A DNA stretch of 64,000 bases, taken from positions 96,001 to 160,000 of the forward strand of contig JAHQWK010000012.1 of the NCBI GenBank assembly GCA_029856145.1. The letters are read 5' to 3'. The stretch's first letter is position 1; the number at the start of each line of letters is the position of its first letter. The DNA comes from Promethearchaeia archaeon (GTDB taxonomy: Archaea > Asgardarchaeota > Lokiarchaeia > Sigyniarchaeales > SOKP01). The notes under the pieces are model-generated. The model saw nothing but the letters and a program-made list of their open reading frames with translations, ran no database searches and was not told where the DNA came from. Positions 21,741-54,322 of this stretch are shown one piece after another. The position numbers and the translations under genes were made by a program.

Positions 21741-22535
21741 TTATTTTTTCATGCTATAGTAAGCTATAAGGTCGTCTAACCAATTGAAGATTTCTTCTTT
21801 TGATAGATTGTCAAGATTAAACTTCAGTCTTTCTAATTCTCTTAGAATATTTTTAATATCCAATGGTATAGATCGTTGACATAGTTCAAATAAAAATTCA
21901 TTACTCTTTGTAACCAATGATTTAATTTCCGAATCCATTGCTTCAAATATAGGAGTATTATCTAATTCATCCACAGTTTTATCAATATCTACAAGTAAAT
22001 TTATTAAATCAAAAAGTCTTCCCGTTTCATTTCCTTTAAATGAACTATGAAACTGAAAGAAATAACCCCTGTAATCATCTATAGGAATTAATTCGGAATA
22101 TTGATTCGCTATTCGAATAACAGATTTTATATGTTTATATAGATTCGATGGAGCCCATGCATATAAATCAAGACTAGACTCTACTTCCTTACTTCGTATA
22201 TCTAAATTAAATTGATGCTCATCTTTAAAATAACCAAAAGGAATAATAACAAAATCCAATGAATTTACACTATTTTTCGTTAAAGAAAAGCTTAGATCAT
22301 CTATAGTATAAGCTTGATCTAGTGAATGTCTATATAAGTTAAATTTTATTTTTTTAATACCTGGTTTATACATATAAAATAATAATCCTTCAAATCCCTG
22401 AAGACTAAACTCTACTGAAAATTTTATATCTCTTTTTATATTCGCTCCATTATTAAATCTTACATCAAGAAATAAATGATAATAGTTTTCAAGATACTGG
22501 AAAAACCAAGGAGCATCGCGCTTTAAATTAAACAT
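21741..22535 (-). CDS. hypothetical protein
   Basis: 264-aa ORF. Confidence 0.6.
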   Translation of the reverse strand: MFNLKRDAPWFFQYLENYYHLFLDVRFNNGANIKRDIKFSVEFSLQGFEGLLFYMYKPGIKKIKFNLYRHSLDQAYTIDDLSFSLTKNSVNSLDFVIIPFGYFKDEHQFNLDIRSKEVESSLDLYAWAPSNLYKHIKSVIRIANQYSELIPIDDYRGYFFQFHSSFKGNETGRLFDLINLLVDIDKTVDELDNTPIFEAMDSEIKSLVTKSNEFLFELCQRSIPLDIKNILRELERLKFNLDNLSKEEIFNWLDDLIAYYSMKK

Positions 22536-22682: not shown

Positions 22683-22973
22683 TTAAGTTTTAAAATCTAA
22701 AATTCTAGAACCATGAAATAATCTAACTATTTGAACCTTATCTCCAAAAATTCTATAAATAAGACGATAATTTCTTAAAATTAATTCTCGAATATTTGGA
22801 TCGTCGAGCTCTGGTACTTTTCTTCCCAATTTCGGAAATTGAGTTAAACTTTCAACTTTTTCACGAACCAGTTCATAAAAGGAAAGAGCATATTCAAGCG
22901 AGTCTTGAGCAATATAATCAATAATCTCATTCAAATCATTTTCTGCTGTTGGAGACCATTCTATTTCAACCAT
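22683..22973 (-). CDS. RelE/ParE family toxin
   Basis: WSPTAENDLNEIIDYIAQDS, FPKLGR, YRLIYRI, IVRLFHGSR. Confidence 0.88.
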   Translation of the reverse strand: MVEIEWSPTAENDLNEIIDYIAQDSLEYALSFYELVREKVESLTQFPKLGRKVPELDDPNIRELILRNYRLIYRIFGDKVQIVRLFHGSRILDFKT

Positions 22974-23161
22974 TTTTCCAATCTCTTTTTAGCATTTTCC
23001 ATGACTTGTTCATGAGGAATTACTTTTCCTAGCTTAACTTCTTCAATACCCGTTAATATCTTCTTTTTAACATATAGATGATACATGATATCATCAATTG
23101 TAGCATCTTCTGGTAATTTTCTTATAAGGGCTATTATTTCTTCCTTAAGATTAGTAGTCAT
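22961..23161 (-). CDS. putative antitoxin of the RelE/ParE pair
   Basis: LPEDATIDDIMYHLYV...G.VIPHEQV; overlaps the toxin start. Confidence 0.8.
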   Translation of the reverse strand: MTTNLKEEIIALIRKLPEDATIDDIMYHLYVKKKILTGIEEVKLGKVIPHEQVMENAKKRLEKWLK

Positions 23162-23527: not shown

Positions 23528-24406
23528 CTATATACCAAGCTTTTCTAATACTCCAGATAATCTTGTACGATGAAATTTTAATCCTAATTCATCCGGACTA
23601 AATCCCATTGCTAAAGCATATAATTCTGTTAGATACAAAACAGGGATTCCATATTCGGTTTCGAACATCTTGCCGAGATCTCTTTGTCTAGTATCAAATT
23701 GCTGGAAACATGATGGACAGTTCACAACAATGACGTCCGCACCAGTCTTTTTAATACTATCCATTTTTTTCTTTAGATTTGCCATGCCATGTTCCTCATA
23801 TGCATTTGTTACTGCTGAACCGCAACAAAGTGCAATTTCTTCATAGTCTACTACTGTAGCCCCAGAAAGAGCTGCTAACTCTTTTAAATTAGTCGGTCGC
23901 ATTGGATCGTCGGATTCCATCCATTCAGCGGGTCTCATATAATGACACCCTGGATGGCAAGCTACTTTCAAACCACCTAATTGTTTAGTTATAGCTCCTC
24001 TAATCTTATCCAATCCCACTTCATCTTTCAATACATCAACAAAATGCTTTATATCTATAGACCCTTTAAATTCCTTCCCGATTTTTGCCAGCTCCGAATT
24101 GACCTTTTCCTTCTTCAAGCTATCATGCTCTAATTGATGCTTTACACCTCTTAAAGTATTAGCACAACCATTACATAATGATACAATGTCCTTACCCTCT
24201 GTTTCTGCTAAACATAGATTTCGAGCACCGATTGTTAACCACGCATCATTATCAAAACATTTTACTCCAGTAGGATCTGGACAACATGAGAATGGTGCCT
24301 GAGAGGTTTCAATACCTAGCTTATCAAAAACTTTTCTTGAAGCAGCTTCAATAAAAGGAATTCTATTACCAATAACACATCCCTCAAACATTTTATATTC
24401 TGTCAT
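23528..24406 (-). CDS. hdrB: heterodisulfide reductase subunit B (copy 1)
   Basis: Two CCG domains: GC..SCCP..CNGC and GCH..CCG..CPSC. Confidence 0.92.
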   Translation of the reverse strand: MTEYKMFEGCVIGNRIPFIEAASRKVFDKLGIETSQAPFSCCPDPTGVKCFDNDAWLTIGARNLCLAETEGKDIVSLCNGCANTLRGVKHQLEHDSLKKEKVNSELAKIGKEFKGSIDIKHFVDVLKDEVGLDKIRGAITKQLGGLKVACHPGCHYMRPAEWMESDDPMRPTNLKELAALSGATVVDYEEIALCCGSAVTNAYEEHGMANLKKKMDSIKKTGADVIVVNCPSCFQQFDTRQRDLGKMFETEYGIPVLYLTELYALAMGFSPDELGLKFHRTRLSGVLEKLGI

Positions 24407-24422
24407 TTTTCTTATCCTCGAA

Positions 24423-24932
24423 TTATTTTAGTTTTTTATCTGTTCCAATATTTTTTAGTAATGTTTGTACTTCATTCACATCTGGTACTACTACCGCTGG
24501 TAAACCTAATTGTTCTCTTCGTCTCTCAATTGCAGGTTGTGAAGGAATTGCTTTGGCATTTTCGAAAACTGTTTTTGCCTGTGAATAGATAAATTCTGGA
24601 CCTTTCCCTAGAGCAATACTCTGGTTTTTTAGAAATGTAAAGATTTCTGTAAGCTCAATATTTTGGGGACATACCTCATCACATGTATCACAAACAGTAC
24701 AACCCCAAATAGTTAACTCATCTCCTCCAAGGAGTAAACCTTTATATCCTAAAAGAGCAAATAAGATATTTTTTCTAGGATTATAACCCTTAGCCGGGTC
24801 ATAAAAATCCGCGGTAACATCAGTTACAGGACAATTATCAGCACATCTACTACATTGATAACAGTATTTAATCACATCAGGCCCAATATGGTAATCTAAA
24901 ATCTGTTTTCTCCATTCAAAGTTTACTTCCAT
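24423..24932 (-). CDS. hdrC: heterodisulfide reductase subunit C (copy 1)
   Basis: CYQCSRCADNCP and CTVCDTCDEVCP; upstream of hdrB. Confidence 0.9.
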   Translation of the reverse strand: MEVNFEWRKQILDYHIGPDVIKYCYQCSRCADNCPVTDVTADFYDPAKGYNPRKNILFALLGYKGLLLGGDELTIWGCTVCDTCDEVCPQNIELTEIFTFLKNQSIALGKGPEFIYSQAKTVFENAKAIPSQPAIERRREQLGLPAVVVPDVNEVQTLLKNIGTDKKLK

Positions 24933-24977
24933 TTTTTTTCACTTTTTTTCTTATTTTTTGAATGATTTTTTTTATTT

Positions 24978-25055
24978 GTAGGCTTTAACCCCACGCAAGG
25001 GGCAGTTATATCCAATTTCTATTATTTTTATTGGACATTCATCCTATAAGCCTAC
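24978..25055 (-). promoter_or_regulatory. candidate SECIS-like element in the vhuU 3' UTR
   Basis: AUGA, 9-bp helix AUGUCCAAU/AUUGGAUAU, A-rich loop, a CCCC/GGGG hairpin, all closed by GUAGGCUU/AAGCCUAC. Confidence 0.5.
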
Positions 25056-25190
25056 GTTCAAATTTCGAGAGTAAATCTCAGTGCCCTCTTCATTAACTAC
25101 AGTAATGTGAGCAGCACACGATAGTCAACAGTCAAAACAGCGAACTATCATTTCCAAGAGATTTACTACACCTTCTGGTATATCACTCAT
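25044..25190 (-). CDS. vhuU: [NiFeSe]-hydrogenase small peptide subunit VhuU, selenoprotein (Sec at codon 22)
   Basis: Manual translation MSDIPEGVVNLLEMIVRCFDC(TGA)LSCAAHITVVNEEGTEIYSRNLNVGL; supplies the L2 Ni-binding motif missing from the upstream large subunit. Confidence 0.92.
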
Positions 25191-25233
25191 CTTTTTTTAT
25201 TCACTTTTTTATTTAATTTTCAATATATTTGAT

Positions 25234-26538
25234 TTATTTAATCCATGGGTCTGGTAATTTTAATCCATCTAGTGCCTTGTCTTCGAAAACCTGTTTAGCT
25301 ACATGCATTAATGTCTTTTCAATTCCCGCAATATTATGGTTAGTTGCTACTAAGAGATTTGCTTTTTTACAAATTCCTTCAGCATCTGACCAAATATGAT
25401 ACAAAAGTAATCCTCGTGGAGCTTCAGTGACGCCAACACCATCTCCTTCTCGTGGTTGGACATCCAAAGTTTTACAATCTGGATTTACCACATCATCATC
25501 TTGAAGGAGTGTTGCTACAACTTCAATTGACTCAACTAATTCAATTAATCGAGCCCAATGATATGCGAATGTATGATGAGGTATGTTTCCAACTTTTGCT
25601 CTCATTGCTTGCAATGCTTCATCAGCTAAGGGAGTTGCCATTTTATCTGCACAGTTAATCATTGCTAATGTATTCGCTCGATAAATACCTTCAGGGTATC
25701 CAGCAGGTTTATAATACATGTGAGTTGCATAAGAATGTTCTGGAATGTGTTCACCTAAAGCGTCTAAATATTTCTGAGGTGGATAATCGAATTTCTCTCC
25801 ATCAGGAGAAACAATACGAATATCACCATCATAAATATCATGAACACCATTTTTAGTCATACCTAAGTAATAAGTTGGAACAACACCAACATTAGCAACA
25901 ACATCCCAATAATCTTCGACAACTTTTAAACCAATATCCACAGTCTTTTTTGTCCATTCAACTTGATCCTCAATTTGTTTTAAAAACAAATCTCGAACAT
26001 CTTCATCTAAAGGCTTTTTCATTCCACCAACTATAGCAGAAATTGGATGTACAGATTTACCACCTACTGCAGCGCATAATTTCTGTCCAAAATCCATCAT
26101 TTTTAATGCCATTGTACCGACTTCTGGCATTTTATTGATGACATGAACAACATTCCTTAGCGCAGGATCAGCGAAAGGTCCTAATAAGAAATCAGGAGCT
26201 GCAAGTGCATAGAAATGAAGTGCATGTGATGAATATTGCTTTGCATTCTGTAACAATTGACGTAATTTATATGCTGCAGGAGGAATTTGAACGCCCCAAG
26301 CGTCTTCTACTGCTTTGGTAGGTGTTAGATGATGAGGTATCGGACATATACCACAAATTCTTGGAGTAATTCTAGGGATATTTTCGCAATATCTTCCTTC
26401 AAGAAATTTCTCAAAAAATCTTGTCGAAGTGATATTGAATTGAACATCTTGTACCTTTCCATCATCACCTAAGACTAATCTTAAGCCTCCATGTCCCTCT
26501 AATCGAGTCACGGGGTCTACTACTATTTCTTTTACCAT
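25234..26538 (-). CDS. vhuA: F420-non-reducing (group 3c-like) hydrogenase large subunit lacking the C-terminal L2 motif
   Basis: DPVTRLEGH, RICGICP, EAPRG; no DPCxxC at the end. Confidence 0.92.
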   Translation of the reverse strand: MVKEIVVDPVTRLEGHGGLRLVLGDDGKVQDVQFNITSTRFFEKFLEGRYCENIPRITPRICGICPIPHHLTPTKAVEDAWGVQIPPAAYKLRQLLQNAKQYSSHALHFYALAAPDFLLGPFADPALRNVVHVINKMPEVGTMALKMMDFGQKLCAAVGGKSVHPISAIVGGMKKPLDEDVRDLFLKQIEDQVEWTKKTVDIGLKVVEDYWDVVANVGVVPTYYLGMTKNGVHDIYDGDIRIVSPDGEKFDYPPQKYLDALGEHIPEHSYATHMYYKPAGYPEGIYRANTLAMINCADKMATPLADEALQAMRAKVGNIPHHTFAYHWARLIELVESIEVVATLLQDDDVVNPDCKTLDVQPREGDGVGVTEAPRGLLLYHIWSDAEGICKKANLLVATNHNIAGIEKTLMHVAKQVFEDKALDGLKLPDPWIK

Positions 26539-26542
26539 TTTT

Positions 26543-27856
26543 TTATACGCCTCCTTTTCTTGATGCTAATGTAAATTTTTCAAAAGTGCCAATAGGATCT
26601 TTTACTTGAGCAAGTAGTTCATCTTTGGATAAACTCACATTGAATCCCTTAAGTATAGTATCTGCAAATCTCTCTGCTTGATCAACACCCCATTCTGTCT
26701 GACCATAACAGCCAGAACATGGAGCGTTAACCTTGATACATAGACCGCCACAGCCAGCACGAGTAACAGGACCCATACAGATATATCCTTGTTCAATAAG
26801 ACAATCATCCATATTAGGAAGCCCTTCATAGTCTCTTTTAACTTTTGTCATTGTAGATTTGCTTCCAATAATCCGAGGACATGTGTCACAGACGTTTGAG
26901 ATTTCAGTGAAATCTGAATTATCTCTCAAGAAAGCCATTAAACTTCCCGCAATTTCCTCTGTTGTTGGAGGTAAATTTGCTATGGGTGTGTCAGGAGTTC
27001 CATGTTTCTTTACTTGTTTTAGGATATCTCCAGCTAAATCAAAACCTGCCATTAATGGGACATTCAAGAATAATGTTAGAAATTCATACAAATTCTTTTT
27101 ATCTCCTGAACTAATAGCACCAAGACTCTTCGTCATACTGCCTAATTTTTCTGCTCTAGAATCAACTGTCTTTGCAGGCCCAAAGCAACCAACACAGGGT
27201 TTTCCTTTACTGGTACATTTTAAGCTGCAACCAATACTAGTTATGGGACCGAAGCATAATTTTCCTGCGTCTAATAAACAGTTATCTTTAATAGCACAAT
27301 CATTACAATATGCAAGATCATTCATAGGAAATGGCTTTTGTCCTAATAAGAATATCACAGCACTGACAATCTGTTCTGGTCTAGGCGGACACCCTGCCAT
27401 ATAAACATCTACATTAATAATATCATCAACAGGAACGATTTTATCTCTAAAACCGGGAGTATGTTGTGTTGGTTCACCACCACTTCCATCAGCTATACTT
27501 TCTACTTCAGAGAATTTTCTTCTTACTAAGTCATCTTTATTCCACTGGTTAGCTAATCCATGTACATTTCCATAGCAGGAACAACTTCCAAAATTAATGA
27601 TTAGAGCGCATTTTTCTCTCATTAGTTTGACGTTTTCATAATCTTCATTAGTTCTAACAGAACCTTCAATGAATCCGACTAATATTGAACCGTTTTCTCT
27701 CGCTTTCAATGAATCATGTTTAAAGTCTACTACTGCTGGCCAGTAAACTATTTCGAGTGCTGGAAGAACTGGCAATAATCCTAAATGAGCATTCAATAAG
27801 GATTGATGACAACCCCAACAATCGGAAAGTTGCATAAAAGCTACTTTTACTGCCAT
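26543..27856 (-). CDS. vhuG: F420-non-reducing hydrogenase small subunit with duplicated C-terminal Fe-S module
   Basis: CWGC, GSCS, GCPP and two 8-Cys modules. Confidence 0.88.
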   Translation of the reverse strand: MAVKVAFMQLSDCWGCHQSLLNAHLGLLPVLPALEIVYWPAVVDFKHDSLKARENGSILVGFIEGSVRTNEDYENVKLMREKCALIINFGSCSCYGNVHGLANQWNKDDLVRRKFSEVESIADGSGGEPTQHTPGFRDKIVPVDDIINVDVYMAGCPPRPEQIVSAVIFLLGQKPFPMNDLAYCNDCAIKDNCLLDAGKLCFGPITSIGCSLKCTSKGKPCVGCFGPAKTVDSRAEKLGSMTKSLGAISSGDKKNLYEFLTLFLNVPLMAGFDLAGDILKQVKKHGTPDTPIANLPPTTEEIAGSLMAFLRDNSDFTEISNVCDTCPRIIGSKSTMTKVKRDYEGLPNMDDCLIEQGYICMGPVTRAGCGGLCIKVNAPCSGCYGQTEWGVDQAERFADTILKGFNVSLSKDELLAQVKDPIGTFEKFTLASRKGGV

Positions 27857-28407
27857 TTTTTATCAATTTTTTTTTGTATATTTTGTTTGTTTAAATTAGC
27901 TAATTTAAATTAAAAAAAATTAGTTGAGATATGTTATTCATAACTGTATTAAAAAGTTCTGATTCCTTTTACATTCTGATAAAATTATTTTTACAATATG
28001 AATAAATATTCAAAATTTACATTTAGCTAAATTTGGAAGCAGATTTTTAATTAACTCCTTATTATATTTTAGAAAATGAAATATTTATTTTTTTATTCGT
28101 TTTAAGCGAAAATAATAAGCCTTTTATCGAATAAATTAACTAAATTTATCTGATTGTGGTAAATGATAATTCCATTAAAATAACTATGTTCTTGTGTTAA
28201 ATTTTAATTATTAATGTCGACCTTGTTTTAAGAGTATTTGAAGATAAATTTTGTATTAATAAAACTGATAATTTTGTAGAAGAAAAACTGACTGACTAAT
28301 TTCATTAATTTTAAATATTTTACCATCTAATTAGAATTATCATTCATTTACCTATCGAATGATTATTCAAAACAATTAAATAAAAAACAAAAAAAAGTTG
28401 GATAGAA

Positions 28408-28641
28408 ATGGTAGATATTACAGATACACTGGATTGCACGGGCGATGTTTGTCCTTATCCAGATGTAAAAAGCAAAAGAAGAGTTAAAAAGATGAATTCA
28501 GGAGAAGTACTTGAAATTCTCCTTGATTATCCTCTTTCAGCTGAGAGAATTCCCGAAACTATGAAATCTCTAGGGCATGAAGTGCTATCTGTAGATAAGA
28601 CCGGAGATTCTTCTTGGAAGATTCTCATCCAAATAAAATAA
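28408..28641 (+). CDS. tusA: TusA/SirA (YeeD/YedF-like) sulfur carrier
   Basis: LDCTGDVCPYP, GEVLEILLD. Confidence 0.9.
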   Translation: MVDITDTLDCTGDVCPYPDVKSKRRVKKMNSGEVLEILLDYPLSAERIPETMKSLGHEVLSVDKTGDSSWKILIQIK

Positions 28642-28654
28642 GGTGAAAAAAAAA

Positions 28655-29701
28655 ATGGAATTTTGGTATGCATTAATAGTAGGACTTATTATTGGAGGTA
28701 TTTTTGGTTTTATATTACAGCGCGGAAGATTCTGTATGAATTCAGCCTTCAGAGATATCATTTTAATGAAAGAATTTAAGCTCGCAAAAGCAGTCGTGGT
28801 CTCATTGGCCGTCTTAATGATTGGTTTCGCGATATTTGCATTTGGCGGAGTAATTAATTTAGCTCCAAAACCATTTAAACCATGGGCAGCAATAGTTGGT
28901 GGTTTAATATTTGGAGGTGGAATGGTTCTTGCAGCTGGGTGTGCAAGTGGAACTACATATCGAGTCGGAGAAGGAATGATGGGATCTTTTGTCGCTGCTG
29001 TTGGGTTAACAACCGGTGCAATAATGACAAAGTTTGGGCCTCTAAATCCATCAATGCTATTCTTACAAGATGTTGTAGTTGGAGGAAACCTTACAATTTT
29101 TGGAGAATTCGCAGACTTAGGAACAATATTACCGACTTTGATGATTATTATTGGTATAGTAGGGATTGCCCTTATGCTTTTTTTCTGGGGATGGCCAGCT
29201 ATAAAGAAAAAAAGAGAAGCAAAGGAACCTTTAATAAAAACTGAAAATTTTGTAGAATCAACCTTTAAAAAAGGATGGCCTTGGTGGGTTACTGGTATTG
29301 GTGTTGGTATAATATTAATAGCTGGTTACGTTGCTAGTAATGGTGTAGTAGGTATTACAGGTGGTTGGATTAATATCGATTTATGGCTCGTTTTTGGAGG
29401 GTTAAGTCCTATTGGATGGACTGGTGCTATAATTTTCGGTATTATCCTTGGATCATTCGTTAGTGCTATTATCGCTAAAGAGTTTAAGTTTAGGGTTCCG
29501 AAAGAAGGGTTCACATTGGTTAAGCAGTTTATAGGCGGAGGCTTAATGGGATTTGGTGCTGTAACAGCGATGGGATGTAATATAACAAACATATTAGGTG
29601 GAGTACCTCAGTTTTCATTACATAGTATTATAGCGGGCGCATGTATAATGTTTGGAGCTTGGATAGCAGCTTATCTTCTATTTATGTGGAGACAAGACTA
29701 A
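28655..29701 (+). CDS. YeeE/YedE family thiosulfate/sulfur-compound transporter
   Basis: QRGRFC, LAAGCASG, MGCNI; multi-TM; ATG at 28655 after AGGTGA. Confidence 0.9.
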   Translation: MEFWYALIVGLIIGGIFGFILQRGRFCMNSAFRDIILMKEFKLAKAVVVSLAVLMIGFAIFAFGGVINLAPKPFKPWAAIVGGLIFGGGMVLAAGCASGTTYRVGEGMMGSFVAAVGLTTGAIMTKFGPLNPSMLFLQDVVVGGNLTIFGEFADLGTILPTLMIIIGIVGIALMLFFWGWPAIKKKREAKEPLIKTENFVESTFKKGWPWWVTGIGVGIILIAGYVASNGVVGITGGWINIDLWLVFGGLSPIGWTGAIIFGIILGSFVSAIIAKEFKFRVPKEGFTLVKQFIGGGLMGFGAVTAMGCNITNILGGVPQFSLHSIIAGACIMFGAWIAAYLLFMWRQD

Positions 29702-29723
29702 CTTTTGGAGATGAGAGAGAAAT

Positions 29724-30086
29724 ATGGGACGACTTGGAATACTTTTTTTCAATGGACCATACCAAGCAGAGTCTGCTGAAACTGTTTGTAAATTAGCGAG
29801 CACAGCATTAGATAAAGGTCATGAAGTGCGAATTTTTTGCTATATGGATGCTGTCAATGCAGCTTTAGAAAATCAAAAAGATATTGAAGGAATATATAAC
29901 ATCGAAAAAGCGTTCAAAGAAATCCTTGAAAAAGGAGCAACTGTGAGATTATGTAACCTATGTCTTTTAGTGAGAGGTACCATGAAAAATTGTTTAAAGA
30001 GAGAATGCGGAGATGTTAAAAGAGCTGGGACACCAGATCTTGCTAAGATTATTGATGAAACTGATAAATTAATAGTAATATGTTAA
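29724..30086 (+). CDS. DsrE/TusD family sulfur-relay protein
   Basis: GPY, IFCYMDAV, CNLCLLVRG. Confidence 0.85.
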   Translation: MGRLGILFFNGPYQAESAETVCKLASTALDKGHEVRIFCYMDAVNAALENQKDIEGIYNIEKAFKEILEKGATVRLCNLCLLVRGTMKNCLKRECGDVKRAGTPDLAKIIDETDKLIVIC

Positions 30087-30097
30087 GGTGATAATAA

Positions 30098-30442
30098 ATG
30101 TCAGAAGAAAAAGAAGTAGTAATACTTTTACGGCAACCCCCTCATGGAACACTTTATCCCGTTGAGGGTCTAAGAATGTCGGTTGCTGTAAGTGCAGATT
30201 TTGATCCAATAACCATTGCTATTAATGATGGTGTCTATACCTTTCTTAAAGATGTAGATAAAACGATGTATTCAATGCACATAGATTTTCTTAAGAATAT
30301 TGACTTGGATATTTATGTAGATAAGAAATCACTTGATGAACGTGGTCTTACGAAAGATGATCTAATAGAACAAATTGAGATCAAAGAACATGGTGAAATT
30401 TTGAAAATGATTGAAAATTCAACCGTAACTATACCATTTTAG
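30098..30442 (+). CDS. DsrF/TusC family protein
   Basis: PPHG...EGLR, DGVY, SLDERG. Confidence 0.85.
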   Translation: MSEEKEVVILLRQPPHGTLYPVEGLRMSVAVSADFDPITIAINDGVYTFLKDVDKTMYSMHIDFLKNIDLDIYVDKKSLDERGLTKDDLIEQIEIKEHGEILKMIENSTVTIPF

Positions 30443-30447
30443 GAGGT

Positions 30448-30756
30448 TTGATGACAATGAGCAAAAAAGTCTTGTATTTTATCACAAGTGAAGATATCAC
30501 AGGAGTAGAACTTGCTATGGAACATACTGATGAAGATGATGTAACAATTCTCTTACTCCAAAATGCTGTATATTTCGCAAATAAAACCAATAAAACTGTT
30601 TCACAAGCACTCAATCAAAAGAAAACTGTAGCAGCCTGTAAAGAGCATATAGATTTACGAGGTTTAAACAATTTCGTCTCTGATAAAATTAAATTAGTTG
30701 CTTCCGAACAAGTTATCGACTTAATTTTCGAAAATGATACTATCATAAATATGTAA
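30448..30756 (+). CDS. DsrH/TusB family protein
   Basis: ILLLQNAVY, DLRG; third gene of a DsrEFH-like triad. Confidence 0.8.
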   Translation: MMTMSKKVLYFITSEDITGVELAMEHTDEDDVTILLLQNAVYFANKTNKTVSQALNQKKTVAACKEHIDLRGLNNFVSDKIKLVASEQVIDLIFENDTIINM

Positions 30757-30900
30757 TTGACAAAATTTAATCATTCTAAATTTTTTTTTAATTTTTTTAT
30801 TCTTGTAGATAAATTAGTCTAGATTTAAAACTTAATTACTCAAAGGTAAAATCTTAATTGATTCTATTATAACCTAAATTCTTTTAATTTTTGTTTCTAT

Positions 30901-31962
30901 TTGACACTTATGAGTGTAAAAAAAGAAAGCTCAAATATAATCCGCCTAGCACATGGGGCGGGTGGAAGTTTACAAGAAGAATTAATTGATTTCATCACTA
31001 AAAATATTCCTTTTAAAAATATAAATAATGGGATTGGAGTTGAGGCATTAGATGATGGTGCTACAATTCCTTTAAATGGTTATGAAAAAGAAATCGTTGT
31101 AACAGCAGATGGGCATACAATTTATCCTCTTTTCTTTCCTGGGGGAGATTTAGGAACTTTAAGCATTTGTGGAACTGTAAATGATCTTTTAATGATGGGT
31201 GCAGAACCATTAGCTTTAACGTCCATGATAATCATAGAAGAAGGTTTTGAATTCAAAAGTTTAGAAAAAATAATTAATTCAATGAATATAATGACACAAA
31301 AAGCGAATATTGCAATAATTGCGGGAGATACTAAAATAATGCCCCGAGGATCATTAAATGAAATAATTATAGCAACAACAGGGATAGGAATAAAAGATAA
31401 AAGCATAAATATTTTAGATAGCCGCCTAAAAGTTGGAGATCATATAATTATAACTGGGAGTATAGGAGATCATGGAACAGCACTAATGGCTTCTCGAGAA
31501 GGGTTAAATATTTCTACGGACCTAAAGTCAGATCTTTCACTTTTATTAGAAATTCATAATGCAATCAAGTTTGAAATTAATAATAATTTTATTCATGCTA
31601 TGAAGGATCCAACACGTGGAGGTATTGCAGCTGCTTTAAATGTTTGGGCCGTGAAATCAAATGTAAGCATCTGGATTGATGAGGAAAAAGTCCCGCTTAA
31701 AAAACAAGTCACAGCTATATGTGATATGTTAGGATTAGATCCATACAATATAGCAAGCGAAGGGAGAGCTCTCTTAGCAGTTGATCCAGAGCATTCTGCA
31801 AAAATATTAAAAAAAATCAAGTCAACTGAGATCGGAAAAGATGCTGAAATAATTGGGGAGGTAAAAGTACAAAATCCTCGAAGAGTGTTCTTAAAAACAA
31901 TTGTAGGAGGAACCCGGTTTATAGATATGCCTCTGGGGGACCCAATACCTCGTATTTGTTAA
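30901..31962 (+). CDS. hypE: hydrogenase maturation protein HypE
   Basis: HGAGG, FFPGGDLG, GDTK, DPTRGG, C-terminal PRIC. Confidence 0.96.
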   Translation: MTLMSVKKESSNIIRLAHGAGGSLQEELIDFITKNIPFKNINNGIGVEALDDGATIPLNGYEKEIVVTADGHTIYPLFFPGGDLGTLSICGTVNDLLMMGAEPLALTSMIIIEEGFEFKSLEKIINSMNIMTQKANIAIIAGDTKIMPRGSLNEIIIATTGIGIKDKSINILDSRLKVGDHIIITGSIGDHGTALMASREGLNISTDLKSDLSLLLEIHNAIKFEINNNFIHAMKDPTRGGIAAALNVWAVKSNVSIWIDEEKVPLKKQVTAICDMLGLDPYNIASEGRALLAVDPEHSAKILKKIKSTEIGKDAEIIGEVKVQNPRRVFLKTIVGGTRFIDMPLGDPIPRIC

Positions 31963-32318
31963 TCATTGTATCCATTCTTATCTTTTTTACATAAAATTTT
32001 TTCTATACCTATTTTAAGAATAGATATGTCTTTCTTAGCAGTATTCCATACTTCTTTTAGATCCACTGTGAAGTATCCGTGGATTAATTTATCTCTTATT
32101 CCAGCTAATTTTATCCAAGGTTTATTTTTGAAGTTTTTTCTTATATCATCAGAAAGGTTCATTGTAGCTTTTCCAATTATTTCAAGTTCTCTAATTACGG
32201 CACTTTGAATCAAGCATTTCTTTATGAAAGTTTTAAAATAAAAATCCTTTGTAAATTCTATGATATGTATACAGGAATCAATTATATGACTTTAAAGAAG
32301 GTCATTTTTATCATTCAT
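31959..32318 (-). pseudogene. HEPN/DUF86 (HepT-like) toxin with in-frame TAA at codon 9
   Basis: ATG at 32318 overlaps the antitoxin stop; MNDKNDLL*SHIIDSC... is in frame with RDKLIHGY (Rx4HxY). Confidence 0.75.
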
Positions 32319-32614
32319 TCATAAATCACAATTACTTCTTTCAATACTTGATCCTTAATGTGAGGGCTTATTCCATTTCGAGATAATAGATCAATTTTCA
32401 TATCCAAAGCTTCAGATAATTCAATTTCTATGCCAACATGATCTAACAAACTAGTTCCCTCAGGGAAATCTACAATTAAATCTAAATCACTTTTTGGTGT
32501 TGCTTCTTTACGAGCATAAGATCCAAAAACTAAAATTCTTTTAATATCATGCTTTACAAGAATAGAAATTATTTTTTTTTTAATTTCCTCATTTAATTGT
32601 AACTCTTTTTTCAA
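32315..32614 (-). CDS. MNT nucleotidyltransferase antitoxin (MntA-like)
   Basis: FGSYARKEATPKSDLD (GSx10DxD), KIDL. Confidence 0.88.
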   Translation of the reverse strand: MKKELQLNEEIKKKIISILVKHDIKRILVFGSYARKEATPKSDLDLIVDFPEGTSLLDHVGIEIELSEALDMKIDLLSRNGISPHIKDQVLKEVIVIYE

Positions 32615-38409: not shown

Positions 38410-38520
38410 TTATATGTTTTTTTCCAAATTATTCAGGTGCATCTTAGCTTTTTCAAATCATATTGGATTAATAATATTATTTAATAACATTTTTTCGTTC
38501 AAATATATAGTGAAATGATC

Positions 38521-39918
38521 ATGGGTGGGCTCTTCGGTGTTTATTCAGATTCAGATTGTTTAGAAGATCTTTTTTATGGAACAGATTATCATTCTCATTT
38601 AGGAACAAGAAGAGGAGGATTAGCAGTAAAAAACTCAAGTGGTTTTCAAAGATTCATCAAAGATATCACAACAACTCAATTTAGATCTAAATTTGAGAAA
38701 GATATTAAGAAAATGCATGGTAATAAAGGAATCGGGGTGATTAGCGATTATGATGATCAACCATTAATAATTAACTCACATTTAGGCGTATTTGCTATTT
38801 GTACTGTTGGAAAAATTAATAACATAGAAAATTTAGCAAAAAAAGCTTTAAAGAATGGATCTCATTTTTCAGAGATGCATGGAGGTGAAATAAACCCTAC
38901 AGAATTGGTAGCAACAATAATAAGCCAAGGTGATAGCTTTAAAGATGGAATTCAAGAAGTTCAAGATATGATAGATGGATCATGTACTATGCTTATATTA
39001 ACAAGTGAAGGTATTTATGCAGCTCGCGATAAACTTGGAAGAACCCCCCTTGTAATAGGAGAGAAATCTGGTTCTTATGCCGTTACAATGGAAACTTGTG
39101 CATTTCCAAATCTTGGGTATAAAATAACAAAATTTCTTGGACCAGGAGAAGTAATTTATATAAGTAAGAACGGTCTTGAACAAAAAATCACACCTGGTAA
39201 CCGAATGCAAATATGTGGCTTTTTATGGGTGTATTATGGATATCCAGCATCAAATTATGAGAATATTAATGTAGAAGTTGTTCGTTATAAATGCGGCTCT
39301 TATTTAGCAAAAAATGATGAAACCCAAGTTGATCTTGTTGCGGGTATTCCTGATTCTGGTACTGGACACGCTTTAGGTTATGCAAGCGAAGCAAAAATTC
39401 CTTTCTCACGACCATTTGTAAAATATACTCCAACTTGGCCCCGTAGTTTCATGCCTCAAGATCAATCTATTAGGGACGAAGTTGCGAAGATGAAACTCAT
39501 CCCGATTAAAGAACTCATTAACCAAAAGCGTTTACTTTTCTGTGAAGATTCAATTGTGAGAGGGACACAACTTAAGAAGACAATTCAAAGGTTGTATGAA
39601 TATGGAGCCAAGGAAGTCCATATGAGACCTGCATGCCCCCCACTAGTTTATAGCTGCAAATTTCTAAATTTTTCGCGGTCTCGTTCAGAATTAGATTTAG
39701 CGGGACGGTGGGCAATAAAAGAACTAATTGGAAGAAATATTGATAATCCCATTGAGTATACTGACCCTGATTCTGATAATTACAAAGCTATGGTTGAGGT
39801 TATACGTAAAAGGTTGGGATTGACGACCTTACAATACCAGAGGCTTGAAGATTTAATTAACGCCATAGGATTACCAAAGGAAAAGATATGCACGTATTGT
39901 TGGGATGGTATAGAATAA
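38521..39918 (+). CDS. purF: amidophosphoribosyltransferase paralogue lacking the N-terminal Cys (MGGLFG type)
   Basis: RDKLGRTPL, PDSG, EDSIVRGT, CTYC; no Cys1. Confidence 0.85.
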   Translation: MGGLFGVYSDSDCLEDLFYGTDYHSHLGTRRGGLAVKNSSGFQRFIKDITTTQFRSKFEKDIKKMHGNKGIGVISDYDDQPLIINSHLGVFAICTVGKINNIENLAKKALKNGSHFSEMHGGEINPTELVATIISQGDSFKDGIQEVQDMIDGSCTMLILTSEGIYAARDKLGRTPLVIGEKSGSYAVTMETCAFPNLGYKITKFLGPGEVIYISKNGLEQKITPGNRMQICGFLWVYYGYPASNYENINVEVVRYKCGSYLAKNDETQVDLVAGIPDSGTGHALGYASEAKIPFSRPFVKYTPTWPRSFMPQDQSIRDEVAKMKLIPIKELINQKRLLFCEDSIVRGTQLKKTIQRLYEYGAKEVHMRPACPPLVYSCKFLNFSRSRSELDLAGRWAIKELIGRNIDNPIEYTDPDSDNYKAMVEVIRKRLGLTTLQYQRLEDLINAIGLPKEKICTYCWDGIE

Positions 39919-39930
39919 AGAAAAAATTGA

Positions 39931-41427
39931 TTAAGCTCTACTTTTAACAATTGATTTTTCCAATTCAGCTAATTTTTGTACAGATTTTAATGGATAATTT
40001 CCTGTTAAACACGCTAAGCATAATTGATTTTTATTCTTTCCAATAGCATTAGTTAAACCGTCAATAGTTTGATATAATAATGTATCTGGTCCAATTTTTT
40101 TTTGAATCTCTTCTAAATATTTTTCACCATAGAGGTTTCGAAATCTTCCAGCAATTAATTCATTTTTTGTAGGAAAATCGATTCCCATATAGCATGGACT
40201 AATAATAGGGGGACAGCTTATACGTAAATGAACGCGCTTAGCCCCTCCTTTCTCCTTTAATAATGAAACGATTTGCTGGGTTGTTGTTCCTCTCACAATA
40301 GAATCATCTAAAAGAATAATATCTTTACCATTAACAACGTTTTTAATAGGGTTTAATTTTTCTTTTACAGCAATTTTGCGTTTTAATTGACCAGGCATGA
40401 TGAAGGTTCTATGCACATATCTATTCTTCATTAACCCTTCTTCGTAGGGAAGATTAGCTTCTTTTGCATATCCCACAGCAACACCTCGCCCAGAATCTGG
40501 AACTGGAACAACTATTGCATTTTCTCTTATTTCGTGATTATTTAAGATGGGATCGTTTTTTGCTAAATGCATTCCTAAACGTAATCTTGCCTCTGCAACT
40601 GAAACACCATCGATAACTGAATCTGGTCTTGCGAAATATACATATTCAAATTGACATATAGCTGTTTTGTTTGTTTTAATTATCAATTCTGAATGAATAT
40701 CTTTTTGATGGCTTAGATGTACGATTTCTCCTGGTTTTACATCTCGTAAGAGTTTTCCTCCAACTACATCTATCGCACATGATTCAGATGCAACAAAATA
40801 TATATTTCTTTGTTCTGATTTTAATTCACCAATACATAACGGCTTGAATCCCAAGGGATCTCTCATAGCATAGATATCTCCATCAGCAGTCATAAGTATT
40901 AGAGAATAAGAGCCATCCAATATCCTACTCGCTAATCTTAATATTTCTGGCCAATCTTCAGTCCCTAATGCTATTGATCCAATTAATTGTGCCATCACTT
41001 CAGTATCAGTATCAGTGATAAAAACACGCCCCATATTATCCATATTCTTTTTGATTTCATCAAAGTTTGCTATAGTTCCATTAAAAGCCATAGAAAACTC
41101 AATTTCATTATTTTTAAAATGAAAAGGTTGCATATAATCAGTTGATTTATATCCAACCGCTCCTGTAGTTGCATACCTATTATGCCCAATTCCTACATTT
41201 CCCCAATATTGCGAAATTATTTTATCTTCTAAAACTTTCGAAACTAATCCATTTTTTTTATAAGTAAATATTTTTCCCCCAGTTTTTAAAATAGATATAC
41301 CTGTAGATTCTTGTCCTCTATGCTGCAAAGCAATTAAACCTTGATACAAAAGCTTTGAGACAGAATAACCGAGATCATCACAAGTTACACCAAAAATAGC
41401 ACAATTTTCTCTAGGTTTTTCTCTCAT
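39931..41427 (-). CDS. purF: amidophosphoribosyltransferase, canonical (propeptide plus Cys1)
   Basis: KPRENCAIFG, LQHRGQES, GHNRYAT, DDSIVRGTT, CLAC. Confidence 0.93.
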   Translation of the reverse strand: MREKPRENCAIFGVTCDDLGYSVSKLLYQGLIALQHRGQESTGISILKTGGKIFTYKKNGLVSKVLEDKIISQYWGNVGIGHNRYATTGAVGYKSTDYMQPFHFKNNEIEFSMAFNGTIANFDEIKKNMDNMGRVFITDTDTEVMAQLIGSIALGTEDWPEILRLASRILDGSYSLILMTADGDIYAMRDPLGFKPLCIGELKSEQRNIYFVASESCAIDVVGGKLLRDVKPGEIVHLSHQKDIHSELIIKTNKTAICQFEYVYFARPDSVIDGVSVAEARLRLGMHLAKNDPILNNHEIRENAIVVPVPDSGRGVAVGYAKEANLPYEEGLMKNRYVHRTFIMPGQLKRKIAVKEKLNPIKNVVNGKDIILLDDSIVRGTTTQQIVSLLKEKGGAKRVHLRISCPPIISPCYMGIDFPTKNELIAGRFRNLYGEKYLEEIQKKIGPDTLLYQTIDGLTNAIGKNKNQLCLACLTGNYPLKSVQKLAELEKSIVKSRA

Positions 41428-41568
41428 TTTTTGTCCTTTTTTTTTAAGAAGCATGATATTCGTAATCGTAAATTTGAGAGAAGCAATTTAATTATCTTCA
41501 ATTAATTTAAATCATATATAATTTTTAATTATTAGTTTATTAAAATATTAGATATTTCGTGGAAAAAA

Positions 41569-52497: not shown

Positions 52498-52766
52498 ATT
52501 TTTGCTAAATTTCTAACCTCTTTTTAGTTTAGCTAAAATGCTAAAATGTTGAGCATTTTTTACTTATAAAAATGTAAAATATAAGAAATAACTGTTCTTT
52601 TAGATTTAGTTATGAATTATCGATAACAAATTTTTTTAAGAAATATACTTTTTTCTTTTTAAGATTATCAATTAATTTGTTTGATCAAACACATAAAAGC
52701 AAACACCTTGTTTTTTTACAAAATTGCAAATCAATTTTTAAATCATATGCGAGATTCGAAAGAATT

Positions 52767-53369
52767 ATGAGCGAAAATGTGGAGAAATATATAAAAAGAA
52801 AAGTCTATAAGTCTACAAGTTCAAGAATTGCACAAAAGTTTGTTGATGCGGGATTAGAAAAAATAAGAGCATGTATCAACTGTGGAACTTGTACCGGAAG
52901 TTGTCCAAGTGGACATCGAACAGCATTTAGGACTCGTTCTGCGATTCGCCGAGCTCTTACAGGAGATGAAAGCGTATTGAGCGATATAGATATTTGGCTT
53001 TGCTCTACTTGCTATTATTGCTACGAACGTTGCCCAAGGGACATTCCTGTGACAGATATGATAATAAAATTAAGAAATATAGCAGTTGAAGAGGGATATA
53101 TTTTAGATACACATTTTACGCTAGCTAAAGATATTTTTTATGCTACTGGGCATGGTGTACCCGCAACTGGCGAAAATAATAAAAAATGGAGAGATTTAAG
53201 AAAATCCTATGGATTGCCACCATTACCACCAACAGTTCATTCCTACCCTGAAGCTGTTAAGGAGTGCCAAGAATTGATGGATGCTGTAGGATTTAAAAAA
53301 TTATTGGATAATGCAGAAAAATTAAAAAAAGAGAGAGCAAATGCAAAGAAAAAAGATAAGGAGGAATAA
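52767..53369 (+). CDS. hdrC: heterodisulfide reductase subunit C (copy 2)
   Basis: CINCGTCTGSCPS, CSTCYYCYERCPR; ATG at 52767 is the likely start. Confidence 0.93.
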   Translation: MSENVEKYIKRKVYKSTSSRIAQKFVDAGLEKIRACINCGTCTGSCPSGHRTAFRTRSAIRRALTGDESVLSDIDIWLCSTCYYCYERCPRDIPVTDMIIKLRNIAVEEGYILDTHFTLAKDIFYATGHGVPATGENNKKWRDLRKSYGLPPLPPTVHSYPEAVKECQELMDAVGFKKLLDNAEKLKKERANAKKKDKEE

Positions 53370-53371
53370 TT

Positions 53372-54322
53372 ATGGCTGAAGATTATAAATGGCGATATGG
53401 ATTTTTTTTAGGATGTGTAATTCCTAACCGTTACCCTATGATTGAAGCCTCAATTAGAAGTGTTTTCGACCATCTCGGTGCTGAGCTTTTAGATTTACCG
53501 GGGGCTTCATGTTGTCCCGCACCTGGTGTTTTTAGAGCATTTCATATACCAACTTGGCTTGTTATTGCTGCAAGAAATATCTCTATCTCAGAAGGATTAG
53601 GAGTAAGTCCAATTACCGGTTGTAATGGTTGTTATGGAACTCTCAGAGATGCCTGGTATGAACTTGAACATGAATATGAATTAAAAAAAGAAGTTAATGA
53701 ATATCTTGCTAAAATTGGTCGAACGTATAAAGGCAATCTGGAACCAAAACATGTGGTTCAAGCTTTCTATCTTGATATGGGATTAGATCATTTAAAAGAT
53801 TATATTAAACTTAAATTTTCAGATTTAAAAGTAGCTGTACATTATGGGTGCCATATTGTAAAACCAAGTGATAAAAGACCTTGGAATGGTGAATATGAAG
53901 CTCCTAGATTTCTTGATGAGATTGTTGAAATCACAGGAGCAAAAAGTATTGATTATAAAGATAAATATATGTGTTGTGGAGCTGGTGGAGCTGTCAGAAC
54001 TGCTGTTAAAGAAGTTGCAGCAGATTTTACACGAGAGAAATTAGTGAATATGAGAGAGGCGGGAGTCGATATTATTATTAACTGCTGTCCTTTCTGTCAT
54101 CTTCAATTAGACCTAGGCCAATTAGAGGTAAATAATTTTTATGGAGATATAATTGGAGAACCATTTCACATTCCCGTAATATATATAACTCAACTCTTAG
54201 GAGTTGCGTTTGGCATGGATCCGAATTTATTAGGGTTAATTAAGAATCATGAATTGCAAGGCGTTTCTCCCTTTATTTCTGTAGATCCATTCTTGAATAT
54301 TGTTAAAGACCAATTAATTTAG
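53372..54322 (+). CDS. hdrB: heterodisulfide reductase subunit B (copy 2)
   Basis: FFLGCVIPNRYP, SCCPAPG, CNGC, HYGCH, CCGAGG, CPFCHLQ. Confidence 0.94.
   Translation: MAEDYKWRYGFFLGCVIPNRYPMIEASIRSVFDHLGAELLDLPGASCCPAPGVFRAFHIPTWLVIAARNISISEGLGVSPITGCNGCYGTLRDAWYELEHEYELKKEVNEYLAKIGRTYKGNLEPKHVVQAFYLDMGLDHLKDYIKLKFSDLKVAVHYGCHIVKPSDKRPWNGEYEAPRFLDEIVEITGAKSIDYKDKYMCCGAGGAVRTAVKEVAADFTREKLVNMREAGVDIIINCCPFCHLQLDLGQLEVNNFYGDIIGEPFHIPVIYITQLLGVAFGMDPNLLGLIKNHELQGVSPFISVDPFLNIVKDQLI

Follow-up and report, generated by a model that had tools for sequence, protein, structure and literature searches.

The closest described relatives of the locus studied here are the MvhAGD-HdrABC and VhuAUGD-HdrABC complexes of Class I methanogens (PDB 5ODC, 9SFI, 9SW2), in which MvhD or VhuD is encoded with mvhAG and the published electron path runs from MvhG through MvhD to HdrA. 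In Methanosarcina acetivorans, an Fe-S donor can deliver electrons to HdrB2 via HdrC2 without HdrA: the heterodisulfide is reduced from ferredoxin without HdrA2 (0.62 vs. 3.6 mol/min/mol; PMC5296606), although the physiological complex has HdrA2. The sHdr, YeeE-YeeD and yeeE-tusA-dsrEFH (YTD, DsrEFH type II) clusters resemble our locus in placing a CPxP TusA, DsrE-family proteins and YeeE beside Hdr-like genes. However, sHdr has HdrA and two types of HdrB/C and works oxidatively with LbpA, so that the shdrC1B1AHC2B2 arrangement differs from the single hdrC and single hdrB, without hdrA, described here.

In Nerearchaeum marumarumayae, mvhG, hdrC, hdrB and mvhA carry consecutive locus tags, and the accessible parts of the 2025 preprint propose that H2 drives the reduction of persulfides on TusA/DsrE, the thiosulfate being taken up through TsuA (bioRxiv 10.1101/2025.07.22.663070). 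Those parts thus already contain the idea of TusA/DsrE persulfide reduction by a group 3c hydrogenase-Hdr enzyme; they do not note the missing HdrA/MvhD, an insert in VhuG or a direct interface, and give no experimental test. Our literature search, which covered papers outside subscription access, found no published precedent for a hydrogenase-HdrBC enzyme lacking HdrA.

Gene content of the hydrogenase-hdrCB operon

The window, a 64,000-nucleotide stretch of a Promethearchaeia contig, carries a co-oriented run of vhuG, vhuA, vhuU, hdrC and hdrB (Table 1). The initial annotation had described this run as free of hdrA and vhuD, and each gene is indeed in place. The genes are separated by 4 bp (vhuG-vhuA), 43 bp (vhuA-vhuU), 111 bp (vhuU-hdrC) and 16 bp (hdrC-hdrB), with a lokiSECIS-like element inside the 111-bp gap (z -2.2 for its 76-nt region) whose features are those described for lokiSECIS (Mariotti 2016, PMC4989117). 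As in the methanogen complexes, a group 3c large subunit with an RxCGxC motif is paired with a separate selenocysteine (Sec) peptide (U-x-x-C-x-x-H plus SECIS). Sec is present in every vhuU read from relatives, and vhuA is the sole match to such a large subunit in the source genome. hypC and a cooC-like ATPase gene lie beyond hdrB.

The upstream region of about 550 bp had also been described as lacking hdrA and vhuD. It contains no open reading frame longer than 63 aa, even when TGA is read as Sec, which rules out a concealed vhuD. A promoter and terminator scan returned signals at chance level, and an atlas search with the conserved open reading frame at 21741-22535 gave no usable match. Pfam and NCBIfam profiles gave the cassette and hypE assignments; tusA-yeeE-dsrEFH-hypE start divergently from the hydrogenase operon.

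Table 1. Features of the hydrogenase-hdrCB operon and the divergent genes (positions within the window)
Feature	Position	Strand	Description
hdrB	24406-23528	minus	VhuG-linked clade
hdrC	24932-24423	minus	VhuG-linked clade
GC-rich hairpin	25003-24988	minus	just after the lokiSECIS-like element
lokiSECIS-like element	25042-25005	minus	AUGA, 9-bp stem, A-rich loop, AAC
vhuU	25190-25044	minus	48-aa selenopeptide with Ni-ligating Sec; TGA 25127-25125 in DC-U-LSCAAH
vhuA	26538-25234	minus	434 aa; large subunit of group 3c in its split form; match to NF041785 at E 1e-141, under the cut-off
vhuG	27856-26543	minus	437 aa; small subunit of the [NiFeSe] hydrogenase, enlarged; residues 1-175 proximal domain, ~176-312 insert, 320-432 C-terminal module of MvhG type with two clusters
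VhuG canonical medial and distal cluster module	26708..26890	minus	C323-C383
VhuG insert helices, residues 250-272	27041..27109	minus	most confident predicted HdrC contacts (model)
VhuG extra 8-Cys module	27185..27307	minus	C184-C224
Divergent intergenic region	27857-28407		551 bp; without vhuD/hdrA
tusA/yeeD-type sulfur carrier	28408..28641	plus	CPxP; C15 in 20/20
yeeE/tsuA-family transporter	28643..29701	plus	conserved Cys 31, 100, 312; R37/R107/E110
dsrE-dsrF-dsrH (TusDCB-like)	29724..30756	plus	sulfur-transferase trio; starts 29724, 30098, 30448
hypE	30901-31962	plus	first gene of the hypE-hypD-hypF block; hypD 32753, hypF 34875

VhuG folds like MvhG and has the ligands of three clusters: two of its stretches match 5ODC_E, and 287 of 298 residues superpose (Z 28.3, rmsd 2.7). 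Beyond MvhG it contains an insert of about 130 residues, and it carries two 8-Cys modules. Wherever a source was named, full-length matches to the insert came from Promethearchaeota; other Asgard classes gave only short matches in frames of about 260-340 aa. A fold search with the isolated insert model (pLDDT 77.5) reached a best Z of 4.4, which shows neither novelty nor absence. Two weak matches beyond this class, P0168 and P0266, were set aside as unrelated: both are small subunits of the group 3b type, and their hydrogenase operons contain no hdr genes.

HdrC has two CxxCxxC motifs and HdrB both non-cubane [4Fe-4S] ligand sets, with C10, 41, 42, 78, 81, 154, H155, C194, 195, 230 and 233 invariant in 58 proteins. 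Both nevertheless differ from their methanogen counterparts. The first-cluster motif of VhuG-linked HdrC is CYQCxRCxDxCP, in place of the HdrA-type TC(S/T)GxCP, with D/E in 47/51 proteins. In HdrB the site loops CCPAPGVF, CCGAGGG and CPFCH are replaced, a subtype that also occurs in hdrA-linked copies, and the protein scores below the TIGR03288 cut-off (281 vs. 345 bits). Phylogeny placed VhuG-linked HdrB and HdrC, including orphan copies, each in one dedicated clade (FastTree 0.87/0.94); the window's other hdrCB is methanogen-type. A sister clade of orphan HdrC keeps TCS(G/S) in 30/30 proteins, like hdrA-type HdrC, and has the second-cluster motif in common with the VhuG-linked proteins. The source genome's orphan hdrC has the HdrA-type first motif, and this gene occurs in 29/30 genomes of the family.

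Recurrence of the unit and the predicted VhuG-HdrC contact

A synteny survey found vhuG in 134 of 151 Lokiarchaeia genomes, with VhuG-linked hdrC at most about 3 kb downstream in 60 of 80 loci; among the remaining 20, 7 stop at a contig or locus edge. The layout without hdrA and vhuD is therefore class-wide and not a chance arrangement. hdrC lies directly behind vhuG in 21 loci that span all seven sampled families, 8 of them with no vhuA nearby, and an independent metagenome record has vhuG, hdrC and hdrB abutting. Co-oriented hdrA/mvhD adjoin the unit in only 1/60 loci (L074). hdrCBA-mvhD stands beside it there and in L079, L080 and L083, and in family f7 (L074, L079) hdrA-mvhD belongs to the same run as vhuG.

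Complex prediction gave VhuG and HdrC a score of 0.86, against 0.02 for the best of three controls. Of the solved pairs 58/80 attained the mark used, and of the mismatched ones 2/110, rough counts for which own alignments were used. The runs agree in at least 93% of contacts, with partner pLDDT of at least 85. In the model, HdrC docks mainly on the insert helices, with the best contacts from residues 254-269, and VhuG residues 320-327 and 367-371 also touch it. The HdrC face includes the first-cluster motif and brings that cluster beside the ordinary distal cluster of VhuG. Carry-over from 5ODC is an improbable source of this prediction, since methanogen MvhG has no counterpart of residues 254-269. 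Predicted contact pairs covary slightly above re-paired residues (p 0.03), a weak and model-dependent signal at Neff 24. Unsupervised mutual information between VhuG and HdrC returned phylogenetic noise as its top pairs, and the interface showed no significant enrichment of clade-diagnostic HdrC residues (Fisher p 0.17). Eight vhuG paralogues without an hdr neighbour conserve the interface positions no less than other parts of the protein.

These models support direct binding of HdrC by VhuG through the insert, whereas in methanogens MvhD and HdrA take over from MvhG. The initial annotation had further proposed that the extra Fe-S module bridges electrons to HdrC. Synteny, the HdrCB clades, the motif and the complex prediction support the contact; the bridging role, as worded there, finds no support. 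Of the two extra clusters, the one in modelled contact with HdrC (C210/214/221/224) can be dispensed with, being lost in 15-16 of 21 VhuG proteins of other families. The other (C184/187/193/201, kept in 80-81 of 81) is nearly invariant but lies outside the confident interface residues. All eight Cys of the C323-C383 module are invariant in the 81 proteins.

The sulfur cassette

The transporter YeeE has three membrane Cys and an adjacent CPxP TusA-type protein, and its R37/R107/E110 lie at the same intervals as the residues through which StYeeE binds YeeD (PMC11073785), a match of spacing and not of direct alignment. It scores below both the TsuA and the YedE cut-offs. DsrE retains C77/C80/C90 in 22/22 proteins, including the active Cys expected near position 78. 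DsrEFH normally feeds DsrC, yet DsrC/TusE (PF04358) was not found in five genomes, three of them closed, with a positive control in E. coli.

The cassette is present in 42/151 genomes; about 70% of those keeping the unit showed none, and it adjoins the unit in 23/40 genomes with both. Adjacency recurs in five genera, in divergent and co-oriented forms, and is therefore not due to chance; one closed genome has both operons in tandem. Relatives that lack the cassette likewise have the hypE-hypD-hypF block divergent from vhuG. Thus hypE, previously counted with the sulfur-relay operon, shares its divergent start but belongs to the maturation block. The sulfur relay is accessory and optional to the unit. 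The earlier suggestion that TusA/DsrE-bound sulfur is the substrate is accordingly only weakly supported, the cassette being much rarer than vhuG.

Alternatively, the cassette may supply sulfur or selenium for the Fe-S-rich selenoenzyme, or be merely co-regulated, and not be the source of the HdrB substrate; we regard this as quite possible, if somewhat short of an even chance. Even where it is separated from vhuG, the cassette is often followed by hypE/hypD (four loci), the best NCBIfam match of TusA is the selenium-linked YedF, below cut-off, and yedE and tusAD are induced by selenium depletion in Methanococcus (PMC11097638). However, Sec-VhuU occurs throughout, whether or not the cassette is present, so that the cassette is not required for selenium supply. 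In two genera the cassette precedes vhuG, co-oriented and without intervening hyp genes. Moreover, the source genome has a second dsrEFH-dsrE2-tusA set beside another hdrCBA, so the link between relay and Hdr recurs.

Proposed electron route and significance

We favour, as fairly probable, a self-contained, cytoplasmic, flavin-free and non-bifurcating [NiFeSe]-hydrogenase-HdrCB complex acting as an H2:(per)sulfide oxidoreductase. H2 would be oxidised at the Ni-Fe-Se site of VhuA/VhuU and electrons would pass through the proximal, medial (C369-383) and distal (C323-360) clusters of VhuG directly to the first HdrC cluster (C24/27/30/88), cluster roles that we presume from homology. The second HdrC cluster would then serve the two non-cubane HdrB clusters, cleaving an S-S bond. 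The insert would act mainly as a docking clamp for HdrC that replaces the MvhD-HdrA bridge, and a hydrogenase subunit would be the fixed donor, unlike the soluble ferredoxin of HdrB2C2. The direction, from H2 uptake to S-S cleavage, is inferred. HdrB probably acts on some disulfide or persulfide different from CoM-S-S-CoB, with imported thiosulfate or sulfane sulfur on TusA/DsrE a plausible optional feed where the cassette exists. The narrower proposal of an H2:protein-persulfide oxidoreductase that reduces YeeE-imported sulfur on TusA/DsrE via a lineage-specific clamp, the conserved extra VhuG cluster serving as a possible second electron exit, appears unlikely.

Class-wide synteny, the insert, the HdrCB clades, the complex prediction, the motif, covariation and the HdrB2C2 precedent all speak for the direct complex. 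On the other side, the interface is modelled, thiosulphate did not serve MK-D1 as an electron acceptor (PMC11316595), and hdrA-vhuD pairs encoded elsewhere are a natural complement. The f7 loci, the vhuG paralogues without hdr neighbours, the lack of significant enrichment of clade-diagnostic HdrC residues and the HdrB loop subtype shared with hdrA-linked copies also count against it. A canonical bifurcating Vhu-Hdr complex, in which VhuAUG and HdrCB are joined by a Sec HdrA-VhuD from elsewhere and the insert is accessory or stabilising, is the main rival, though it seems to us rather improbable. The source genome encodes 11 MvhD/VhuD domains and numerous HdrA, but only one such hydrogenase. 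Four Sec hdrA-vhuD pairs, on three other contigs, have neither hdrBC nor hydrogenase genes adjacent; such pairs are typical of the class (PMC4989117), Sec-VhuD occurs in all five relatives checked, and the MvhG-type C-terminal module of VhuG is intact. These pairs are better candidates than the hdrA at 54337 suggested earlier, which is disfavoured: it comes with a methanogen-type hdrCB of its own (52677-54322), lacks Sec and is not followed by mvhD. Any source in trans is likely another one. However, the orphan hdrC and an orphan hdrB offer the pairs alternative partners, the predicted HdrC site occupies the distal-cluster exit that MvhD, by homology, would need, and the hdrA-mvhD found beside the unit brings its own methanogen-type hdrB. 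A mixed state, with one hydrogenase serving both types of partner, is possible.

The direct complex might also run in reverse, HdrB oxidising low-potential thiols and the [NiFeSe] site releasing H2 to a syntrophic partner, which we consider very unlikely. These organisms depend on partners that remove H2 or formate (PMC11316595), HdrB is reversible in vitro (PMC5296606), the group 3c large subunit is the only NiFe large subunit found in two closed genomes, and the reaction should be thermodynamically feasible at low H2. However, the genes adjoining the unit include no identified thiol carrier, and the accessible parts of the Nerearchaeum preprint propose [FeFe] hydrogenases for H2 release (bioRxiv 10.1101/2025.07.22.663070).

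In the solved hydrogenase-Hdr complexes, HdrB receives its electrons by way of MvhD and the bifurcating flavin of HdrA; compared with these, a hydrogenase joined directly to HdrC would represent a new architecture. Without HdrA there would be no bifurcation and no ferredoxin reduction, and hence the enzyme would be a non-energy-conserving sink or a step in reductive sulfur assimilation. Metabolic reconstructions usually assume that group 3c hydrogenases bifurcate and reduce ferredoxin; if the junction is direct, that of Lokiarchaeia need do neither. Were the narrower protein-persulfide proposal right, Asgard heterodisulfide reductase would gain a substrate and a function. The unit also singles out a small HdrCB clade that is open to substrate assays in vitro. 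It is carried by cultured members of Lokiarchaeia, which hold a central place in hydrogen-based models of how eukaryotes arose.

The hydrogenase island of the genome

The genome carrying the window (G000) is 97% complete, and its contig C13 (30% GC) holds all the genes of the initial annotation in the divergent layout described there (see table). No hidden ORF was found in the 551-bp spacer between the two operons. Since hypE, hypD and hypF lie on one side and hypC and a cooC-like ATPase gene on the other, we regard the region as the hydrogenase island of this genome, in which a vhuA query found no second large subunit. The additional Cys beside the Ni-ligating Sec of VhuU is present in nearly all relatives (the L075 locus has DPU), whereas methanogen VhuU has D-P-U.

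Features of the hydrogenase island and of related genes elsewhere in the genome (window positions unless a contig or fetched locus is named)
Feature	Position	Strand	Remark
vhuG	start of 27856-23528 unit	minus	437 aa
vhuA, vhuU, hdrC, hdrB	to 23528	minus	with vhuG
vhuU		minus	48 aa; TGA within DC-U-LSCAAH
VhuU motif	25125-25139	minus	RCFDC-U
lokiSECIS-like hairpin		minus	between vhuU and hdrC
GC-rich hairpin	24988-25003	minus	immediately past vhuU SECIS; similar short hairpins trail 3 vhuD genes
tusA, yeeE, dsrE, dsrF, dsrH	28408-30756	plus	beyond the spacer
hypE	30901-31962	plus	beyond the spacer
hypD, hypF			downstream of hypE
hypC, cooC-like ATPase			other side of unit
264-aa ORF	21741-22535	minus	between hdrB and hypC; kept in 27 family loci; no match in Pfam or Atlas
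small gene pairs	22683-23161, 31959-32614		flank island; resemble toxin-antitoxin or nucleotidyltransferase modules (by eye, translations alone)
purF-like gene pair	38515-41454		convergent
hdrA	54337		after its own methanogen-type hdrCB
orphan hdrB	C32:3774 (L118)		59% identical
orphan hdrC	C20:20224 (L119:725-1228)		54% identical
second sulfur-relay/Hdr cluster	C26:15988-25601 (L117)		dsrE-dsrF-dsrH-dsrE2-hdrC-hdrB-hdrA-mvhD and further genes

Linkage of vhuG and hdrCB across the class

The vhuG-hdrC linkage recurs class-wide. Long-type vhuG is present in 134 of 151 class genomes, and in 60 of 80 fetched loci a related hdrC lies no more than about 3 kb downstream (7 of the other 20 stop at an edge). 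The window's family mostly has the order vhuG-vhuA-vhuU-hdrC-hdrB; in the other families the order is vhuG-hdrC-hdrB, either continued by vhuA-vhuU or with vhuA located elsewhere. Because hdrCB stays with vhuG when vhuA is displaced, the vhuG-hdrCB tie is at least as tight as that of vhuG to its own large subunit. In 1 of the 60 loci (L074), hdrA-mvhD lies co-oriented beside the unit, and wherever hdrA-mvhD is near the unit it has its own methanogen-type hdrB. VhuG-linked HdrB and HdrC form one clade each, with the orphan copies falling inside.

The linkage has exceptions: eight hdr-less vhuG paralogues, two cases of vhuG-fwdA-hdrC, and the closed genome G092, where the unit is split. The long paralogues at L091-L098 (50-54% identical) have no vhuA or hdr neighbour and keep every cluster ligand; at L101 and L108 (genus g3), fwdA and then a methanogen-type hdrC lie behind a second long vhuG copy. 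Separately, a divergent hdrC-hdrB pair precedes an FdhA-like molybdopterin oxidoreductase gene at L039, L063, L169 and L170 (clear in the first three), with no hdrA seen adjacent.

The VhuG insert and its predicted contact with HdrC

The sequence match to methanogen MvhG covers VhuG residues 1-175 and 320-432, and 287 of 298 MvhG residues fit the VhuG model on superposition; the C-terminal module therefore most likely carries the ordinary medial and distal clusters, the insert being an addition. Besides four helices, the insert contains a second 8-Cys module. Of these Cys, four are kept in 80-81 of 81 proteins, whereas the remaining four are absent in 15-16 of the 21 proteins of other families that retain the hdrCB link. 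Only about 14 clusters among 1.84 billion representatives match the insert strongly; where a taxon is given, it is Promethearchaeota or Helarchaeota.

We cofolded VhuG and HdrC, each with a 51-row alignment, and obtained a score of 0.86 against 0.02 for the best control. In calibration, 58 of 80 solved pairs reached the score mark, as did 2 of 110 mismatched pairs; these counts are only a rough guide here because the alignments were custom. At least 93% of contacts are shared between runs, and partner pLDDT is 85 or higher. In the model, confidence is highest for contacts of insert helices 254-269 with HdrC 5-24 and 57-61, while VhuG 320-327 and 367-371, flanking the canonical cluster ligands, touch the HdrC face with C24/C27 and 87-90. 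By homology, we take this face to hold the HdrC input cluster, next to the hydrogenase exit cluster. Solved MvhG has no clamp and passes electrons to MvhD and HdrA, so the prediction is unlikely to have been copied from a solved complex; the unit encodes neither protein, and its predicted contact runs from VhuG to HdrC.

A matching control comes from sequence: the first-cluster motif of VhuG-linked HdrC (CxxCx[R/K]CxD type) contains an acidic residue in 47 of 51 proteins, whereas the sister orphan clade has TCS(G/S) in 30 of 30, as in hdrA-type HdrC, and shares the second-cluster motif with VhuG-linked HdrC. The predicted pairs show weak positive covariation (p 0.03), clade-diagnostic HdrC residues have no significant enrichment at the interface, and interface residues are kept also in the hdr-less paralogues. 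The initial annotation suggested that the extra Fe-S module could bridge to HdrC; direct contact is what the model predicts, but mainly through the insert helices, and four insert Cys are dispensable.

Residues of the HdrB non-cubane motif are invariant in 58 proteins, and HdrB chemistry is probably kept. Loops near the site, however, are unlike those of methanogen HdrB and of the second hdrB in the window; this subtype also occurs in hdrA-linked copies.

Electron route and sulfur cassette

HdrBC turnover without HdrA has biochemical precedent (PMC5296606). The main rival to direct wiring is that Sec HdrA-VhuD completes the unit in trans, which we consider possible but less likely. Of 11 MvhD-family domains in the genome, none lies in the unit and four are two-Sec VhuD genes directly after Sec-HdrA; these stand-alone pairs (L113, L114, L115 and L116), adjoined by neither hdrBC nor hydrogenase genes, are available for such a role and have an arrangement already known from Loki (PMC4989117). 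However, they could be occupied instead by the orphan hdrC and hdrB, the closest paralogues of the VhuG-linked genes, since the orphan hdrC clade retains the HdrA-type first motif; orphan hdrC is present in 29 of 30 family genomes, and orphan hdrB is among six hdrB genes here. The hdrA at 54337, suggested initially as an example of a donor, is unlikely to serve, its own hdrCB preceding it. Behind one Sec pair lies an FdhB-like gene, which neighbours an aldehyde-oxidoreductase-like gene.

In the cassette, the three YeeE cysteines, TusA CPxP and a DsrE Cys near 78 are conserved; a search of five genomes for DsrC gave no match. Counted by hand among kin genomes that are not independent, yeeE lies within 3.5 kb of vhuG in 23 of 40 genomes having both, one of these copies being a remnant. 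The arrangement is divergent in three genera but co-oriented in two, and several other genomes show decayed remnants; the closed genome G105 has both operons in tandem. The cassette-unit link is real and probably old. It has often been lost (yeeE occurs in 42 and cassette-type dsrE in 37 of 151 genomes), so the cassette cannot be an obligatory substrate source. Detached copies often remain with hypE/hypD, so the cassette may supply cofactor sulfur; universal Sec-VhuU makes a strictly selenium-related role unlikely. MK-D1 did not respire thiosulphate (PMC11316595), in keeping with a role that is assimilatory or does not conserve energy.

The second sulfur-relay/Hdr cluster also encodes a degenerate MvhG-like protein (417 aa), an FrhB/glutamate-synthase-like flavoprotein fusion (823 aa) and TusA; a like gene set appears in the Nerearchaeum supplement (bioRxiv 10.1101/2025.07.22.663070). 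The same preprint already proposes persulfide reduction, sharing TusA/DsrE persulfide as substrate with our reading of the cassette.

Taken together, the unit is a variant within the Mvh/Vhu-Hdr family. Most likely it forms a hydrogenase-HdrCB complex that works without flavin and is clamped by a Loki-specific insert, for which TusA/DsrE persulfide is a candidate optional substrate.
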